Below, piece by piece: positions 2,693-52,812 of a stretch of DNA of 64,000 nt. A program made the translations under genes and the position numbers. Origin of the DNA: Patescibacteria group bacterium (GTDB lineage: Bacteria > Patescibacteriota > Patescibacteriia > UBA2196); assembly GCA_028748975.1 (NCBI GenBank), contig JAQTPI010000002.1:51213-115212 (forward strand), written 5' to 3'. Below the pieces are notes generated by a model. That model was not told the origin of the DNA. It saw nothing but the letters and a program-made list of their open reading frames with translations, and made no database searches. Every line of letters begins with the position of its first letter. Position 1 is the stretch's first letter.

Positions 2693-4624
2693 ATGCCTTC
2701 TAATCCCTTTCAAATTGAAGCCAGCCCGAGAAAAATTAAGAATCACCATTTGAGCCGTTTTGGCAGAGGTTCTGGCGGCGAAATTTTTGATTACAGCGGC
2801 GCCAAAGAGGGGCTGAAAGCCTCTATCAGTAATCGGCGAGTGGCTTATTTTTTTCTATTGGCCGCGGTAGTTGGGGCGGTGTTTTTGGGGCGTGTTTTTT
2901 ATTTGCAAATCATCCGGGGCGATTATTGGTTTCAAATTGCCGAGGGCAACCGCATTCGAGTGGAGGAAACTTTGGCGCCGCGCGGCATAATTTTTGACAG
3001 AGAGATGGAACCGTTGGTAAAAAATAAACCGAATTTTGTGTTGTCTTTTATACCGGCTGAATTTATCAATCAAAATTCGGAAGTGGAACCCTTTTTGAAA
3101 TTTTTAACAACAGAGATACCGGAAGTTAATGTTAATGAAGTTAAAGACGAAATTAGCCAAGCCAAACAATATTCGGGCGAAGACGAAGAAATTTTGGATA
3201 ACATTCCTTATGAACGGGCGCTCAGTTTGATGATGAAAATAAAAATTTGGCCGGAGTTGAGATTGTCATATTTTTCCAGCCGAAATTATGTGGCGGCTGA
3301 TTATGGACTTTCCAATGTTTTGGGTTATTTGGGAAAAATTGGACCGGAAGAGTGGCCAGGCTTAAAAAATCAGGGCTATCTTTTGATTGAGCGCGTGGGA
3401 AAAACCGGTTTGGAGCGTATTTATGAAAAAGAATTGCGCGGTAACCCAGGTGAAAAAAAGATAGAAGTGGATGTTAAGGGCAATATTAAAAAAATAATCA
3501 GCGAGAGCGAGCCGAAAAAAGGCGCCAATTTGGTCTTGGCTTTGGATGGAAATTTAAATCAGTTTTTAACAAGGCGTCTGTGCGCGGCGGCCGTGCCTTA
3601 CGGTGGCAAAGCCGCGGCCGTGGCGCTTAATCCCCAAAACGGAGAAATTTTAGCTTTGGTTTCCTGCCCGGTGTTTGACAATAATTTATTCAGTAACACC
3701 AAAATTAACAGTGAAAAAATAGAAGTGCTTTTAAATGACGCCAAACAGCCATTTTTTAATCGACCGATTCAGGGTGAATATCCGGCTGGTTCGGTTTTCA
3801 AACTGGTGATAGCGGCGGCGGGACTGCAGGAAAAAATTATTACTTCTTTGACAACGGTTTTATCGATTGGCGGATTAAAAATTGATCAATGGTTTTTTCC
3901 TGATTGGAAAGCTGGCGGGCATGGAATAACTAATGTTACTAAAGCCATTGCCGAGTCTATTAATACTTTTTTCTATTACGTGGGCGGAGGGTTTGATAAG
4001 TTTAGCGGTTTGGGTGTGGATAAAATTATTGAATATGCCAAAAAATTTCATTTTAATCAAAAATTAGGCATTGATTTGCCTGGTGAAAAGGAAGGATTTT
4101 TACCCAGTCGTGATTGGAAATTTCAGACTAAGGGCGAAGAATGGTATATTGGTGACACTTATCATCTAGCAATCGGACAGGGCGATTTGACCGTGACACC
4201 GCTTCAGGTTGCCGCCATGACTTCTTTTTTTGCCAATGGCGGAAGGCTCTATCAACCACACCTGGTCAAAGAATTTTTATTGGAGCGCGGAGAAAAACAA
4301 GAAGTTAAACCGATGATTTTGGAAAATGATATTATTGATCAAGAAAATATTGAGATTGTGCGGCGGGGCATGCGCCAAGCCGTGACCAGTGGCTCCGCTA
4401 AAATTCTTTTGGATTTACCGGTTAAGGCAGCGGCTAAAACCGGCACGGCCCAAGTTGGTGGTAATAAAAATCCACACGCTTGGTTTACTTCGTTTGCGCC
4501 ATTTGATAATCCAGAAATTGTTTTGACGGTTTTGATTGAGAATGGAGTGGAGGGAAGCGTGACGGCGGCGCCAGTGGTGAAGGATACTTTACAATTTTAT
4601 TTTAATAATAAAATTGTAAAGTAG
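2693..4624 (+). CDS. mrdA: penicillin-binding protein 2 (peptidoglycan D,D-transpeptidase)
   Basis: N-terminal transmembrane helix. SxxK (SVFK) and KTGT motifs. Length and domain order typical of class B PBP. mrdA versus ftsI cannot be strictly resolved from sequence alone. Confidence 0.75.
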   Translation: MPSNPFQIEASPRKIKNHHLSRFGRGSGGEIFDYSGAKEGLKASISNRRVAYFFLLAAVVGAVFLGRVFYLQIIRGDYWFQIAEGNRIRVEETLAPRGIIFDREMEPLVKNKPNFVLSFIPAEFINQNSEVEPFLKFLTTEIPEVNVNEVKDEISQAKQYSGEDEEILDNIPYERALSLMMKIKIWPELRLSYFSSRNYVAADYGLSNVLGYLGKIGPEEWPGLKNQGYLLIERVGKTGLERIYEKELRGNPGEKKIEVDVKGNIKKIISESEPKKGANLVLALDGNLNQFLTRRLCAAAVPYGGKAAAVALNPQNGEILALVSCPVFDNNLFSNTKINSEKIEVLLNDAKQPFFNRPIQGEYPAGSVFKLVIAAAGLQEKIITSLTTVLSIGGLKIDQWFFPDWKAGGHGITNVTKAIAESINTFFYYVGGGFDKFSGLGVDKIIEYAKKFHFNQKLGIDLPGEKEGFLPSRDWKFQTKGEEWYIGDTYHLAIGQGDLTVTPLQVAAMTSFFANGGRLYQPHLVKEFLLERGEKQEVKPMILENDIIDQENIEIVRRGMRQAVTSGSAKILLDLPVKAAAKTGTAQVGGNKNPHAWFTSFAPFDNPEIVLTVLIENGVEGSVTAAPVVKDTLQFYFNNKIVK

Positions 4625-8235: not shown

Positions 8236-9242
8236 AATTCAAACCTACTAAAACTCATTACACTATTTTTTTTGTCGTGGTGGCAGTTTTTGTGGCGATC
8301 ATTATTATCTCCAGTTGGAATTTTGGCGATGACCAGGAAATTATTTGGGGCGTGAATTTCAGCAAAAAACAGGCAGACAATTTAGGCGTGAATTGGAAAC
8401 TGGTCTATTGGAAAATGCTGGATGAATATAAATTTATAAAAATAATCAGGATGCCGATTTATTGGGATGAGGTGGAACAAGCCGCGGGCAAATACGTTTT
8501 TATGGATTATACCTGGATGATTGAAGAAGCGGCCAAAAAAAATATCAGTGTTATTCCAGTTTTGGGGCGCCGCGTGCCGCGCTGGCCAGAGTGCCACGAA
8601 CCCTGGTTTTATGGTTTAAAAAGTGAAGCAGAAAAAGAGCAGTTAATTTTAAATTTTGTGAGGGCGGAAGTGGAAGCTTTAAAAAAATATCCAAATGTAA
8701 TTCGCTGGCAAGTTGATAATGAACCGTTTTTGGACGTTTTTGGCGAATGTCCGGTGGGTAAAGATTTATTGGTACAAAAAGAAGTGGAGCTGGTGCGTTC
8801 ACTGGACAGCCGCCCCATTGTTATCACGGAGTCGGGCGAACTTTCCAGCTGGATGAAAGGCGCCAAATTGGCGGATGTTTTGGGCGTTTCTCTTTATCGT
8901 AAGACTTGGAATCCCAATTGGGGCTGGTTTCAATATCCACTGCCGCCGGCTTTTTATTATTACAAAGCAAAAATCGTGAAATTATTATCTGGTGTCAAGA
9001 AAATCATTAATACCGAATTGCAGGTGGAACCTTGGGCGCAAGACGGCGATTTGACCAAAATGCCTTTGGTGGACCAGCGTTATGCCATGGACTTAATCGG
9101 CGTAAAAAACAGCGTTAAGTTCGCCAAACACACCGGTTTTGACGAAATCTACCTTTGGGGTGTAGAATGGTGGTGGTGGCTGGGGCAGAAACAGGGGGAT
9201 TGGAGTTATTGGGAATTCGGCAAAACAATGAATAATGAATAA
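8232..9242 (+). CDS. membrane-anchored glycoside hydrolase-like protein (TIM-barrel, GH5-like NEP motif)
   Basis: Start moved to the MKFKPTK ATG that overlaps the stop of the upstream gene. N-terminal transmembrane helix. VDNEPF acid/base-like motif. Family assignment is tentative. Confidence 0.4.
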   Translation: MKFKPTKTHYTIFFVVVAVFVAIIIISSWNFGDDQEIIWGVNFSKKQADNLGVNWKLVYWKMLDEYKFIKIIRMPIYWDEVEQAAGKYVFMDYTWMIEEAAKKNISVIPVLGRRVPRWPECHEPWFYGLKSEAEKEQLILNFVRAEVEALKKYPNVIRWQVDNEPFLDVFGECPVGKDLLVQKEVELVRSLDSRPIVITESGELSSWMKGAKLADVLGVSLYRKTWNPNWGWFQYPLPPAFYYYKAKIVKLLSGVKKIINTELQVEPWAQDGDLTKMPLVDQRYAMDLIGVKNSVKFAKHTGFDEIYLWGVEWWWWLGQKQGDWSYWEFGKTMNNE

Positions 9243-45268: not shown

Positions 45269-45442
45269 AATTGTGAGCGAACTGGGTATTGTTTTATCTT
45301 ATACCCAATCCCGAGGGTTTGTCAAATGGTTTTTCTTTTTGGCTTTCATGGACTTATTCGCGCGAATGGGTAAATGGATTTTTTTCTAAAATAAAAAAAT
45401 CCCCGCGAATTTTTGTTCGCGGGGTGTTTGTTTCAGATGTGT

Positions 45443-46445: not shown

Positions 46446-46523
46446 ATTAAAAAAATTTGTGTAAAAAATAGCCGTCATTCCGAGCGCAATAATGGAATCA
46501 TTTATAGTGTTTTAATTTTAAAT

Positions 46524-47978
46524 ATGGATAAACAAAAACAAAAAAACTTAGGTGCTTTTTATACTCCCGTCAGCGCCGTAGAGTATATGGTTAGTAAACT
46601 GACTGGTTTTTGTGATAAAAGTAAATTATTAGAACCAAGCGGTGGTGATGGAGCTTTTGTTTCTGTAATTTTAAAGAGGGGATTACTAAAATCGGAACAA
46701 ATTACGGTTTGGGATATCAATCCGGAGGTTAAAAATTATATTGAAAATTTGGGCATAAAAAATATAGTAATAAAAGACACGCTTTTATCAACCAATTTTG
46801 CCAGTAATTCTCTCTTTAGAGGAGAATTATTTTCTCATATTATTGGCAACCCTCCGTATTTAAACAAACAAAGTGCTTATATAAAAAAGAATAAACACAG
46901 ATTAGGAGATCTTTTTAAAGAAATCGGTGCTAATGATACCTATGCCATGTTTTTATATTTAGGTTGTAAATTACTAGAAGAAAATGGCGAACTCTGTTTT
47001 ATTATCAGCGACACCTATTTGACTTTAGGAATTCATAAAAAGTTAAGAAAATTTTTATTAAAAAATTATACCATTAATGAAATCACGCTTTGTTCCAAAA
47101 AATTATTTAGAGATAGTGGTGCTTTGGTTAATACAAGTATAATTTATTTAACCAACAAAAAATCATCCGATAGCCACAAAATAATTTTTAATGATTGTCG
47201 AGAAAACGAAGCCGATAACTATATTGGTAAAAAATTTAAAACTATACAAAAAAATATTTTATCATACCCCGATTATGTTTTTGATTTTAATGGTGGGGCA
47301 AAATTACTTGGTAAAATAAACGAACTTAAAAAAATGGTAAGTCTTTTAGATGGTGGTCTAGGAATGCACACGACAGATAATAATGAATTTTTAGCCATTG
47401 TTGATTATGGTGGAAAAAAATATGCTAGCAATAATGGTATAAACAAGATTGTTTCTGCAACAGATATTGATGGGAAAAAATGGAAATTTTATCATAAAAA
47501 GGGTGGTAATAATAAATATTATCTACCGACCGAATATGCCATTCGTTGGGACAAAGAAGCGGTTTCTCACTACAAAATGCCTAAAAATTACGACATTGAT
47601 ATTAAAAGAATAGGATTTGTTGTTTCCGGCATTTGTTCAAACCTAACAGCCAGACTATCAACGCCCGGTGCTCTTTGGGAAAGCAATAAGGCTATGTGTT
47701 TTTTCCCAAAAGACCCTCAAAAATATCCGCCAGAACTTTTTGTCGGCGTTTTAAATAGTGATATTTATAACAAAATGATAAAGTTATTAAATCATACCAA
47801 TTCTTTACAAATTAGAGATATTAAAAAGTTACCCTGGCCTGATTTTACCAATGAAGATGTAAACAAAATAATAACAATCTCTAAAAATATAATTGCCAAA
47901 ATTAAAGAAAACATGGATTATAGTTTCAACGGAGAACAGGAAAAAATTAATCAAATTGTTAATAATTATTTTTTATAG
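46524..47978 (+). CDS. gamma-class N6-adenine DNA methyltransferase (TaqI/Eco57I-like)
   Basis: GAFYTP (motif X). EPSGGDGAF (motif I). NPPY (motif IV). C-terminal TRD-sized extension. Confidence 0.75.
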   Translation: MDKQKQKNLGAFYTPVSAVEYMVSKLTGFCDKSKLLEPSGGDGAFVSVILKRGLLKSEQITVWDINPEVKNYIENLGIKNIVIKDTLLSTNFASNSLFRGELFSHIIGNPPYLNKQSAYIKKNKHRLGDLFKEIGANDTYAMFLYLGCKLLEENGELCFIISDTYLTLGIHKKLRKFLLKNYTINEITLCSKKLFRDSGALVNTSIIYLTNKKSSDSHKIIFNDCRENEADNYIGKKFKTIQKNILSYPDYVFDFNGGAKLLGKINELKKMVSLLDGGLGMHTTDNNEFLAIVDYGGKKYASNNGINKIVSATDIDGKKWKFYHKKGGNNKYYLPTEYAIRWDKEAVSHYKMPKNYDIDIKRIGFVVSGICSNLTARLSTPGALWESNKAMCFFPKDPQKYPPELFVGVLNSDIYNKMIKLLNHTNSLQIRDIKKLPWPDFTNEDVNKIITISKNIIAKIKENMDYSFNGEQEKINQIVNNYFL

Positions 47979-49890: not shown

Positions 49891-50559
49891 ATGAACGAAA
49901 AAATATATTATCATTTTTTATCTTCAAAAAATGCAATTGATGATCTTGAGCAAAAAAGAATAAAAATTAGTTTAATAGATGAATTGAACGATCCATTTGA
50001 ATTATTGCCATATCTAAGATATAAAGAAGCTAAAAAAAGAAAAACCTATCACAACATTCGTAAAATAGTTTCAAAAAAATATGGTCTCCTGTGTTTTTCA
50101 AAAAAATGGGAGGAACCGCTTTTATGGGGGCACTATGCTGATAAACATCGGGGAATAGCAATAGGTTTTGAAATTTTAAAAGATAAAATATTGAGAGTAA
50201 AATATAATACTGTACCAAAAAGAATAGAATTTGAACTGACAAAAAATCAAGAAAAAAATATAAAATTATTTCTTGATTTGGCTAAAACAAAATATAAAGT
50301 ATGGTCATATGAAGAGGAATACAGAATATTAGTAGAACTTAATAATCGTAATGATGGTCATTATTTCATTCAGTTTGGAGATAGACTAAAAGTAAAAGAA
50401 ATAGTTTTGGGCTGTAATTTTGATAAAAAAAAGTACAAGAAGATAAAAAAATTAGCAAATCGATTACACGCCAAAGTTATACCAACTAGACAAGGCTGGG
50501 AAGATTACAAAATACGCCAATGTGGAACGAAAACTAAAGAATTTCAAAATATAAAATAA
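49891..50559 (+). CDS. DUF2971-like protein
   Basis: YHFLS...LNDPFE motif recalled as characteristic of DUF2971. Confidence 0.45.
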   Translation: MNEKIYYHFLSSKNAIDDLEQKRIKISLIDELNDPFELLPYLRYKEAKKRKTYHNIRKIVSKKYGLLCFSKKWEEPLLWGHYADKHRGIAIGFEILKDKILRVKYNTVPKRIEFELTKNQEKNIKLFLDLAKTKYKVWSYEEEYRILVELNNRNDGHYFIQFGDRLKVKEIVLGCNFDKKKYKKIKKLANRLHAKVIPTRQGWEDYKIRQCGTKTKEFQNIK

Positions 50560-50757
50560 TTTCCTCCGCCGCGCCGCGGAAAAAAACGGAGCAGAAAAAC
50601 GGAGCAGGGGATTGTCAAATTTAAAAATCAAAACCCCAAACCCTAATCCTTGGTTAATTTAGCTATAGCTAATTTAACCAAGGATTGAAAAACAGTAAAA
50701 TTAATAATGTTTGATTAATTCTGCTATAGCAAATTTAATCAAAGATTGAAAAAATAA
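50560..50757. repeat. Intergenic module R1 with 36-bp near-perfect palindrome (50648-50683) and second palindrome (50710-50744)
   Basis: tttcctccgccgcgccgcgg leader. ccttggttaatttagctatagctaatttaaccaagg. tttgattaattctgctatagcaaatttaatcaaag. Confidence 0.7.
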
Positions 50758-50923
50758 GCGGGGAGCAGACCTTTGTCAAAACTGGTTGCCCCGCTTTTTG
50801 TTTTGGGAGCTTATTTTTAAGTATAATCTAATTATAGACAAGTACAATACCCTTGTCAATTTTTTGTCAAGTCCAAATTTGACAAATTACCTTCACTGGA
50901 TGTATAATTAAGTTATCCACAAT

Positions 50924-51676
50924 ATGGCTATCCATAAAACCCAAACAAAGCTCCTGGAATTGGCCGAAAAACAAAATTTGGCTGGTTTAACTTTGCGCAA
51001 AATAGGGGAATTAATCGGCGAACCAAACAGCCCGCAAAAAATTAAACACCACCTCAACAAACTCTTTGAAAAGGGCTTATTAGTTAACAGTCTTGATAAC
51101 AAAAAAATAAGCAAAACTTCCACCGGCTTTAATTCCGAGATGAAATTAATTTCCTTGCCAATTTACGGCTCGGCCAACTGCGGCCAGGCTTTGGAATTGG
51201 CTGATGACAAAATTCAGGGCTATTTAAAAATTTCTCCCTCGATTCTAAAAGAAAAATTTAGAAAAAAAATAAAAGATTTGTATATTCTCAAAGCCATTGG
51301 CTATTCCATGAACCGCGCCAATATCAACAACAACAATATTGAACATGGTGATTATTTGATTATTGATAAAAGCCAAAATGTTCCCGAAGACAACGATTAT
51401 GTCGTTTCCGTCATCGATGGCGCGGCCAATATTAAAAAGTTTTATTCAGATAAAAAAAATCAAAGAATAATTTTAAAATCGGAATCAACTAATGATTTCG
51501 CGCCGATTTATATTCATGCCAACGATCTGGAACAATATGCGATTTGCGGCAAAGTCATTGATGTTTTAAAAGAACCCGAGGATTTTAATGACTGGCAAGA
51601 CGCCGGTTTGTCTGACACTTTGAAAGCGCTTGGTCCAATGAGCGATGAAGAACACAACTACTACATGAATTTATGA
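50924..51676 (+). CDS. LexA-like repressor (winged HTH + S24 peptidase domain)
   Basis: N-terminal LexA-type wHTH. AIGYSM (Ser nucleophile) and downstream Lys (NIKKF). Length 250 aa. Confidence 0.7.
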   Translation: MAIHKTQTKLLELAEKQNLAGLTLRKIGELIGEPNSPQKIKHHLNKLFEKGLLVNSLDNKKISKTSTGFNSEMKLISLPIYGSANCGQALELADDKIQGYLKISPSILKEKFRKKIKDLYILKAIGYSMNRANINNNNIEHGDYLIIDKSQNVPEDNDYVVSVIDGAANIKKFYSDKKNQRIILKSESTNDFAPIYIHANDLEQYAICGKVIDVLKEPEDFNDWQDAGLSDTLKALGPMSDEEHNYYMNL

Positions 51677-52011
51677 AACAAAAAGAAATTTGGATCGTTA
51701 AATATCCGGACGACGCGGCCGGCCATGAATATAAAAAAGAAAGGCCTGGTTTGATAATTGAATCTGACCAACAAATACAAAAAACCAACATCTTTACGGT
51801 GGTGCCTTTAACTTCCAATTTAAGCAACGTAACGGCCGACGATATTTTAATAAAAAAAGACCAGGAAAATAATCTTTTTGCCAATTCAGTTTTAAAAACA
51901 CACCACATCCAATCTTTTGATCGTTCTCGCTTTATCAAAGGAATTGGTAAAATTAACGAAAACACGTTGGAAAAAGTAAAAACATACCTCAAAAAACATT
52001 TCGATTTATAA
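51673..52011 (+). CDS. MazF/PemK-family endoribonuclease toxin
   Basis: KERPGLIIESD ... NIFTVVPLTSN ... IQSFDRSRF PemK signature. ATGA stop/start overlap with the upstream gene. Confidence 0.75.
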   Translation: MKQKEIWIVKYPDDAAGHEYKKERPGLIIESDQQIQKTNIFTVVPLTSNLSNVTADDILIKKDQENNLFANSVLKTHHIQSFDRSRFIKGIGKINENTLEKVKTYLKKHFDL

Positions 52012-52098
52012 CCCTATTGCTTTTCTAAGTTGACTAACCATCATTTTTTTTATTCCCGGTTTAGTGCTAAAATTAAACCATCATAACCACCACAAAAA

Positions 52099-52285
52099 TT
52101 TCCTCCGCCGCGCCGCGGAAAAAAACGGAGCAGAAAAAACAGAGCAGGGGATTAAAAAAATTAAAATAATTAAATCCCCAAATCCTTGGTTAATTTAGCT
52201 ATAGCTAATTTAACCAAGGATTGAAAAACAGTAAAATTAATAATGTTTGATTAAATTTGCTATAGCAGAATTAATCAAACATTAA
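52099..52285. repeat. Intergenic module R2 (palindromes at 52184-52219 and 52244-52280)
   Basis: Same leader and palindromes as R1. Confidence 0.7.
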
Positions 52286-52345
52286 AAATAACATAAAAAA
52301 ATCATATTCTCTAATTCGCGCGAATAGGCGAATAGTTAAAAAAAC

Positions 52346-52684
52346 ATGCAAAAATATCAAAAAATATTTTGGGCGATTATTATTCTTATAGCCGTGACCG
52401 CACCAATAATTGTTTTGGCACTCCAGCCACCAGGCGAAAGAGTGGCCGGAGTAACCATTTTACCCCAAGCCAAACACTCCTTTGCCTATATTTTTTCTAC
52501 CTATAAGATACATTTCTTCTTTTTAGTGATATTAGCTATTTTATTAATAACTCCCCTTGATTTTGTCAAAAGAGAAAAAGTTATTAAAATAATTTTTTTA
52601 AGCATCTTTCTAATTCTTCTTGTGCTGACCGGTAAGACTTTGTATACCGATATGACCATGCCCACTATTATAATTTATCAATAA
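52346..52684 (+). CDS. small polytopic membrane protein
   Basis: Three hydrophobic helices. Confidence 0.4.
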   Translation: MQKYQKIFWAIIILIAVTAPIIVLALQPPGERVAGVTILPQAKHSFAYIFSTYKIHFFFLVILAILLITPLDFVKREKVIKIIFLSIFLILLVLTGKTLYTDMTMPTIIIYQ

Positions 52685-52687
52685 GTA

Positions 52688-52812
52688 TTTCCTCCGCTGC
52701 GGCGCGGCGCAAAAAAACGAAAAAAAAACGGAGCAGGGGACTAAAAAAATTAAAATAATCCAAAACCCTAATCCTTGGTTAATTTAGCTATAGCTAAATT
52801 AACCAAGGATTT
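52688..52812. repeat. Intergenic module R3 (perfect 36-bp palindrome 52773-52808)
   Basis: ccttggttaatttagctatagctaaattaaccaagg. Confidence 0.7.

Follow-up and report, generated by a model that had tools for sequence, protein, structure and literature searches.

Which role do the palindromes of a small repeated module play in a 64,000-nucleotide stretch of Patescibacteria DNA (64 kb, hereafter the window)? Between positions 50560 and 52812 a non-coding module stands in three direct copies, R1, R2 and R3, next to an operon for an S24 (LexA-like) protein and a PemK/MazF toxin, and each copy carries a palindrome that we call P. The original prediction had taken the palindromes for operators of the adjacent repressor or, alternatively, for mobile modules that delimit gene cassettes. 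We propose, with a probability of about 0.4, that the modules are junctions at which gene cassettes were joined into a small array, on the right-hand edge of a low-GC defence island, and that P would be the recombination site. Patescibacteria (Candidate Phyla Radiation, CPR) have tiny genomes with few recognisable mobile elements, and little is understood of how defence and accessory genes enter these genomes or pass between them. A short, sequence-specific palindrome at the joints of accessory units may offer a concrete and testable handle on this gene flux.

Module architecture and the symmetry of P

A reading of the window from 49.8 to 53.6 kb, together with a repeat finder, revealed the three direct copies, and their extents were set by alignment and direct reading of the sequence. 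The elements of the modules, written X, P1, Y and P2, are the following.

50560..50757, plus strand, module R1 (X-P1-Y-P2), from repeat alignment and nhmmer; directly 3′ of the stop codon of the DUF2971/PDC-S31 gene
52099..52291, plus strand, module R2 (X-P1-Y-P2), with the P2 core flipped in relation to R1
52688..52812, plus strand, module R3 (X-P1 only), ending 10 nt 5′ of the MliC/DUF333 start codon, at the right edge of the low-GC island
50645..50686, P1 palindrome of R1, 42 bp with one T-T mismatch
52181-52222, P1 palindrome of R2, 42 bp with one T-T mismatch
52770-52811, P1 palindrome of R3, perfect over 42 bp; arms 52770-52790 and 52791-52811, 100% complementary
50706..50747, P2 palindrome of R1, imperfect; core 50711-50742
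52242-52283, P2 palindrome of R2, imperfect; core 52247-52278
50560..50585, minus strand, GC-rich hairpin at the left end of X in R1, a 10-bp stem with G-U pairs followed by a U-rich tail; terminator-like on the minus strand only

The three copies are present as had been described, and so is the (near-)perfect palindrome of 36 bp. This P1 core, CCTTGGTTAATTTAGCTATAGCTAA[A/T]TTAACCAAGG, lies at 50648-50683, 52184-52219 and 52773-52808 with one, one and no mismatches to the perfect form, respectively; over the 42-bp extent the arms are 95% complementary in R1 and R2, and the R3 copy remains perfect. The second palindrome announced for R1 and R2 was also found, in an imperfect form with two mismatched pairs. 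The P1 core had no match in any of 100 dinucleotide-shuffled sequences, and a chance origin of the palindromes and of the module copies is not expected. The common module start holds for two copies, since TTTCCTCCGCCGCGCCGCGGAAAAAAACGGAGCAG is exact at 50560 and 52099, while the start of R3 has diverged to TTTCCTCCGCTGCGGCGCGGCGCAAAAAAACG.

The hairpin of X recurs at 52099-52124 in R2 and, as a structure-preserving variant, at about 52688-52732 in R3, which keeps it despite the sequence change; X and P1 fold as separate hairpins. The identity between R1 and R2 is a mosaic: 35 identical nt at the start give way to a divergent middle part of X, and over the 112 nt of P1-Y-P2 the identity is 94%. 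The homology between R2 and R3 stops about 10 nt to the right of P1, and the X flanks of the three copies share only 64-85% identity. From P1 to P1 the distance is 1536 bp across the S24-PemK unit and 589 bp across the membrane-protein unit, and the direct repeats measure 193-198 bp around the former and about 125 bp around the membrane-protein gene. The P2 core of R2 is the exact reverse complement of that of R1, inside flanks repeated in direct orientation, and is therefore counted as flipped. Searches with nhmmer profiles of X-P1 and of X alone found no further module copy in the window or in 35 loci.

P is a low-copy family restricted to a narrow clade. In an exact-pattern scan its consensus was absent from 185,579 reference genomes (one per species) and from 2.9 million viral contigs, in which a relaxed arm-only pattern likewise gave nothing; among 241 million metagenome records it occurs in two contigs, L001 and L002, at three sites. 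The module had no blastn match in phage or plasmid records. Contig L001 is counted as a close relative because it is syntenic with window positions 56.6-63.7 kb (77-81% nucleotide identity). Its single P site (9117-9156), perfect over 40 bp, stands 122 bp upstream of xer, the gene for an Xer-type tyrosine recombinase, within the 808-bp spacer that separates xer from an FtsQ-like gene. In L002 two perfect sites (L002a and L002b, at 2058-2089 and 2699-2730, 641 bp from site to site) bracket a single gene of 190 aa (winged-helix and PaaX_M, Cas2-like), whose stop codon lies directly against the second P. Leading up to the first site are, from the left, a GC-rich hairpin just behind the upstream stop codon, another palindrome and then AAAATCCTAAAG-P, which resembles the AAACCCTAATCC-P1 of the window.

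Two other kinds of palindrome were met in these searches. A looser pattern, limited to the centre, hit 54 viral contigs, where the sole extended palindromes are unrelated, AT-rich intergenic hairpins of a high-GC viral contig. In addition, a perfect 36-bp palindrome, TTAATTTTAAGGAAGCTATAGCTTCCTTAAAATTAA, recurs in L073 (1950-2065) and in the viral contigs L046, L048, L061, L064, L074 and L084; in L073, the sole contig examined, it occupies an AT-rich intergenic spacer of a high-GC contig. It has only the GCTATAGC centre in common with P and was judged unrelated.

The five window sites, the L001 site and the two L002 sites were aligned, and mirrored positions were counted by script. All five window sites fit TTGRTTAA-N4-GCTATAGC-N4-TTAAYCAA, and the 24 positions of the three boxes (TTGRTTAA, GCTATAGC and TTAAYCAA) are invariant in the eight sites of the three genomes. 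P is conserved far better than its flanks, both within the window and across these genomes. A single type of pair is found at 15 of the 21 mirrored positions; the other 6 show two Watson-Crick types (e.g., C-G/G-C, G-C/A-T and T-A/C-G), in which both sides changed and complementarity was kept. The inner 4-nt arms vary in differing combinations of TTTA, ATTA, TTCT, ATTT and TTTT, and in P2 they are TTCT / ATTT, the types also carried by the perfect sites L002a and L001. These arm types, with the P2 flip between R1 and R2, suggest that half-site variants of P recombine.

Mirror symmetry that survives double changes is also what selfish or structural palindromes would keep, of the kind of repetitive extragenic palindromes (REP) and bacterial interspersed mosaic elements (BIME), duplicated by ordinary homologous recombination and with no dedicated recombination role. 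All P copies are intergenic, between same-strand genes, and in two cases the module starts within 0-3 nt of a stop codon (0 nt after that of the DUF2971 gene in R1; 3 nt after that of the membrane-protein gene in R3). Flipped elements such as P2, and a hairpin upstream of xer that is flipped in L001 in relation to L034 and L035, are typical of hairpin-mediated template switching, and other short palindrome families are present (Q family; GTCATTCC...GGAATC hairpins). A REP-like family, however, should not be so scarce and so clustered, with five sites in 2.3 kb, none in the other 62 kb, two contigs in the metagenome records and no reference genome. No RAYT or IS200-like gene was seen in the 64 kb of genome, and the 24 invariant core positions point to sequence-specific recognition rather than to structure alone. 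We consider this explanation rather unlikely.

Regulation of the S24-PemK operon and signals around P

The region between R1 and the toxin gene stop codon comprises these features.

50758..50804, both strands, hairpin GCGGGG...CCCCGC with T-runs, bidirectional terminator-like; hairpin proper 50758-50794
50859-50831 (minus strand) and 50879-50908 (plus strand), two divergent 12/12 consensus promoters (sigma-70) with TTGTCAA/TTGACAA repeats
50924-51676, plus strand, S24 (LexA-like) gene, cargo of the proposed cassette 1
51673-52011, plus strand, PemK/MazF toxin gene, overlapping the S24 gene; cargo of the proposed cassette 1
50758-50923 in the window, with 6368-6620 in L026, 7747-8012 in L028 and 4700-4880 in L032, conserved S24-PemK upstream block

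The genes had been rightly named in the original prediction (S24 peptidase, PemK/MazF, MliC with DUF333), and its first reading was that P serves as the operator of the S24 repressor and defines a mini-regulon. Two facts favour it, the closeness of R1 and R2 to the operon and a dyad symmetry that suits a dimeric repressor. Between R1 and the S24 promoter, however, stands the hairpin 50758-50794, the first element of a conserved S24-PemK unit, followed by a separate 12/12 promoter with a dyad of its own. The dyad TGTCAA-N17-TTGACA over the -35 box, the TATAAT and the leader AAGTTATCCACA-ATG are conserved in L026, L028 and L032, and the upstream alignment shows the hairpin conserved in L026 and L028. 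A cluster of TTGTCAA/TTGACAA repeats also stands between R1 and S24, with 5 of the 24 copies of the window within 275 bp, and positions 50831..50908 are likely, as predicted from these signals, to hold the true operator region of the S24 repressor.

Homologues of S24 of about 250 aa number hundreds in Patescibacteria, and the S24-PemK gene pair was found joined again in three loci (S24 89%, 79% and 71% identical), in varied neighbourhoods that include restriction-modification or methyltransferase genes. These orthologous operons share the TGTCAA dyad and do without P; in L026, L028 and L032 there is no P-like palindrome, nor even GCTATAGC. Conversely, contigs L001 and L002 show no S24 gene in the sequence covered, and P adjoins unrelated genes there (xer and the PaaX-like gene). 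The LexA motif reported for Patescibacteria is moreover cited in PMC7739468, after Sanchez-Osuna et al. 2017, as a direct repeat rather than a palindrome. Since the S24 operon carries its own terminator, promoter and probable operator, P stands outside the S24 regulon, and we find an operator role for this repressor very improbable. This corrects an attractive reading of the palindromes, and it indicates the conserved operator/promoter on TGTCAA/TTGACA as the right target for binding studies of S24-PemK regulation.

Two further details of this upstream region were observed. A direct repeat TTGTCAA-N4-TTGTCAA also stands upstream of S24 in the window and in L026, and the divergent minus-strand promoter 50859-50831 would yield a transcript of only about 70 nt that ends at the hairpin.

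P may instead be the operator of some other dimeric factor, e.g., a PaaX-like winged-helix protein, whose small regulon would consist of genes for envelope or secreted proteins. P is placed upstream of same-strand genes in all cases, but, measured from its centre, lies anywhere between 31 and 144 nt from the start codon. In R1, R2 and L002a its right arm contains TTAACC, which resembles a -35 box and precedes TAAAAT by 16-18 nt, and a good promoter follows P in L002b and L001; R3 and L002a, on the other hand, leave no promoter room, and R1 faces a terminator and therefore cannot regulate anything downstream. In L002 P is upstream of the transcription-factor-like gene (possible autoregulation) and of its neighbour, yet no PaaX-like gene exists in the window or in L001. 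Three of the downstream genes encode membrane or secreted proteins. The low copy number and the invariant core are typical of operators, whereas a fully symmetric 42-bp site with compensated changes is not, and the direct repeats of 125-198 bp would be left unexplained. Altogether we hold such a regulon to be unlikely.

A function in RNA was considered for the same region, with the P and X hairpins as intercistronic processing or stabilising structures (e.g., RNase III sites) or as antisense terminators that insulate the cassettes. Compared with shuffled sequences, the P1 and P2 hairpins are far more stable (z = -7.8 and -9.1). None of the P copies was classed as terminator-like, and none has a U-tract after it on the plus strand; under intrinsic-terminator criteria only the X hairpin was recovered, on the minus strand, in R1 and R2. 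The retention of this hairpin in R3 and the perfect minus-strand promoter 50859-50831, which fires towards R1, agree with an antisense role. Against a role of P itself, Rfam 15 gave nothing at gathering threshold, all matches being generic hairpin ones; the best were to microRNA models at less than half the gathering score (mir-9, 29 bits vs 58.6). The 24 invariant positions would be more than a pure RNA structure needs, and the orthologous S24-PemK operons dispense with P. An RNA-level explanation seems to us improbable as well.

A proposed cassette array and the Xer recombinase

The remaining features of the island to which the array is joined are listed below.

46524-47978, type II / Eco57I-like methyltransferase gene, in the left part of the island
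47124..47155, degenerate P-like site TTGGTTAA-N16-TTAACCAA, inside the methyltransferase gene; P membership uncertain
49891-50559, DUF2971 protein gene, matching the PADLOC candidate defence family PDC-S31 (E = 2.6e-29)
52346..52684, plus strand, gene of a 112-aa predicted membrane protein with no family match; cargo of the proposed cassette 2

Across roughly 46-53 kb the GC content is 0.27-0.36 and from 53 kb onwards 0.48, against about 0.42 elsewhere; the last P1, that of R3, coincides with the right edge of this low-GC island. The gene order is methyltransferase, two open reading frames (ORFs), DUF2971, R1, S24, PemK/MazF, R2, the 112-aa gene, R3 and MliC/DUF333. The two ORFs between the methyltransferase and DUF2971 genes had no family match. 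The region of 46-53 kb is called a defence island because of the PDC-S31 match, the methyltransferase and S24-PemK.

The essential part of the proposed system would be the palindrome P of 40-42 bp, whose mirror symmetry is maintained and which may be bound by a symmetric (dimeric) protein, putatively a site-specific recombinase. Circular units with one module copy each would have been inserted in the manner of Campbell, by a crossover within P1 or the adjoining P1-Y-P2. One unit would be the terminator-promoter-S24-PemK segment and another the 112-aa membrane-protein gene, and each insertion would leave its unit between direct module repeats, with one P1 where the inserts meet resident DNA. 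Insertion of a repeat-bearing circle is preferred to transposition because the direct repeats are so long, and the junctions are placed at P1 or P1-Y-P2 because of the mosaic identity of R1 and R2 and the point at which homology between R2 and R3 ends. The S24-PemK unit, from hairpin to PemK stop codon, is found in many Patescibacteria in varied neighbourhoods without P, and is for this reason regarded as an insert between two module copies here. The minimal P-gene-P unit of L002 also counts for cassettes. A Campbell-type insertion is thus considered the most economical account of the repeats, the mosaic identity, the P1 at the island edge, the L002 unit, the constraint on P and its low, patchy copy number.

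The candidate enzyme would be the single Xer-type tyrosine recombinase of the host, the only one in view. The window ends inside the FtsQ-like gene, and synteny with L001 leads us to expect xer about 1.5-2 kb beyond its right end. The array would then be an estimated 12-13 kb from xer (by extrapolation of synteny past the window end), and the lone P of L001 adjoins it. Four related loci have the order SerRS, FtsQ-like, xer, and three others have FtsQ-xer alone. Directly after xer the genes change orientation in most relatives examined, and the GC skew tends to go from positive to negative; because both switch there, xer is probably situated at the replication terminus, where a dif site is expected. 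The GC skew has no switch at the array of the window. In many Patescibacteria (L006, L008, L009, L012 and L014-L016, around 3000-4000) xer was seen to be the last plus-strand gene before a minus-strand block.

Several observations weigh against the cassette proposal and, in particular, against a part of Xer in it. Two contigs whose Xer is 86-88% identical lack P upstream of xer, as do loci with 57-73% identical Xer; neither P nor a shared dif-like motif was found in 18 Xer loci of reference genomes and two close relatives, and nothing like canonical dif was noted at P, or around xer in 15 loci. Of the non-coding motifs near xer, the promoter-like AATGTCGTATAATA alone is conserved. The P upstream of xer in L001 is thus a presence/absence polymorphism; P is not a conserved dif and is unlikely to be the dif of the clade, though in L001 itself it may act as one. 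The link between Xer and P is circumstantial, and Xer as the acting enzyme is a guess, since P is not conserved next to xer in relatives. A tblastn search with the L001 Xer gave no real match, and hence no recombinase gene, in the 64-kb window. No empty-site or circular-junction sequence was recovered, as the short unitigs break at repeats; homologues of the neighbouring 411-aa gene yielded no empty site either, their synteny not being conserved in the relatives retrieved. Moreover, the same architecture would result if module copies had undergone homologous recombination, with no dedicated site-specific enzyme; the centre of P, being perfectly symmetric, cannot set a direction as integration sites usually do; and P is carried by three genomes only, a very small sample. 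Because the window has neither a recombinase nor an empty-site or circular joint, we keep the cassette proposal tentative.

Of the earlier alternative, mobile modules that delimit cassettes, the delimiting function fits the data; transposon-type terminal inverted repeats are lacking, and no target-site duplication is evident at any of the eight P sites. In a wider form, the proposal would describe a new cassette system of this lineage of Patescibacteria, in which circular one-gene units are captured and shuffled at the 42-bp P by Xer or by an unlinked enzyme. We think this wider claim rather doubtful. If it were true, an integron-like or pdif-like mechanism would build defence islands near the terminus in bacteria poor in mobile elements.

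Some smaller elements of these genomes may be recorded here. The P-like site at 47124-47155, TTGGTTAATACAAGTATAATTTATTTAACCAA, repeats the two outer boxes of P, exactly as far apart as in P, around a TATA centre, and differs in its inner arms; by the author's estimate, exact arms at this spacing are unlikely to arise by chance. Upstream of xer a motif AATGTCGTATAATAT(AGGTTAAACGAC) occurs in L001 (8672-8700 and 9254-9272) and also in L006, L009, L012, L034 and L035. The motif also stands at the start of a conserved stretch, about 250 nt long, of the FtsQ-xer spacer, and looks like a lineage-typical promoter of an unannotated conserved non-coding RNA; no Rfam family reached gathering thresholds in L001, L002 or the xer loci (L006, L008 and L009 among them). 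A hairpin with its flanks (GTCATYCTRAA...TTCAGGATC) upstream of xer has at L001 9072-9106 the opposite orientation to that at L034 1-37 and L035 1058-1094, and is the second flipped hairpin element in the lineage besides P2.

A second palindrome family, TATTCTCTTATTCG-NN-CGAATAAGAGAATA, with degenerate ATTCGCGCGAAT forms, is located at 117-148, 483-510 and 2011-2042 of L002 and at 52306-52336 and 45352-45378 of the window. In L002 it lies on both sides of an ArsR-family gene and next to P, and in R2 a degenerate copy follows P2. GC-rich intergenic hairpins, GTCATTCC(G/C)...GGAATC / GTCATCCTGAGG...GGATC, occur in the window (46473-46500 and 63750-63900), in L001 (7560-7650) and in L002 (6070-6095), and represent another small repeat family of these genomes.

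Comparison with known systems

The closest likeness in organization is to integrons and to clusters of attC sites lacking integron integrases (CALIN). The units are compact, with one gene or one operon, all in the same orientation and each ending in a repeat (1536, 589 and 641 bp). The stop codon gives way at once to a structured repeat of about 125 bp, and only a few nucleotides separate that repeat from the next gene; there is a toxin-antitoxin cassette with its own promoter, the repeats within the array are alike, and no integrase is adjacent, as in CALIN. P differs from attC, however, in that it is a (near-)perfect palindrome without extrahelical bases, while attC forms an imperfect hairpin with such bases. 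Its boxes, GTTAA.T...A.TTAAC, are reversed in relation to those of attC (R″ RYYYAAC ... R′ GTTRRRY). X and P1 are separate hairpins and not one attC stem, and there are only two or three cassettes. An attC reading was rejected by inspection on the reversed box order and the perfect stem, and no IntI-type integrase was found by tblastn with the L001 Xer across the window or by Pfam on the island genes.

The pdif modules of Acinetobacter plasmids and the integrative mobile elements exploiting Xer (IMEX) offer a second parallel. They too are small units, often toxin-antitoxin ones, that end in short recombinase sites and encode no recombinase themselves; in L001 a single P adjoins the housekeeping xer at the probable terminus. 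P nevertheless has no similarity to the 11-6-11 (28-bp) consensus of dif and pdif and is fully symmetric, centre included; it is absent next to xer in close relatives, and the array, at its estimated distance from xer, would not occupy the terminus site itself.

In its dimensions P resembles loxP and FRT, with inverted arms of 12-13 bp around a centre of 6-8 bp and 32-42 bp overall. The lox and FRT spacers are asymmetric and give direction, whereas the centre of P, GCTATAGC, is itself palindromic. With REP and BIME it shares the intergenic position at gene 3′ ends, the composite clusters and the proneness to flips and duplications; REPs, however, are dispersed in hundreds per genome in enterobacteria and pseudomonads, and P amounts to a handful confined to a variable region. 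Tandem interspaced guide RNA (TIGR) arrays were rejected, since the P palindromes are not tandem arrays, and so were miniature inverted-repeat transposable elements (MITE), since P consists of two abutting arms without an internal segment and without target-site duplication.

The arrangement works in the manner of cassette systems already known, yet by the tests applied it is neither attC nor dif, REP or MITE. If the Xer of the host were responsible, the principle of the "borrowed Xer", as in IMEX and pdif modules, would extend to a new phylum and to a new kind of site.

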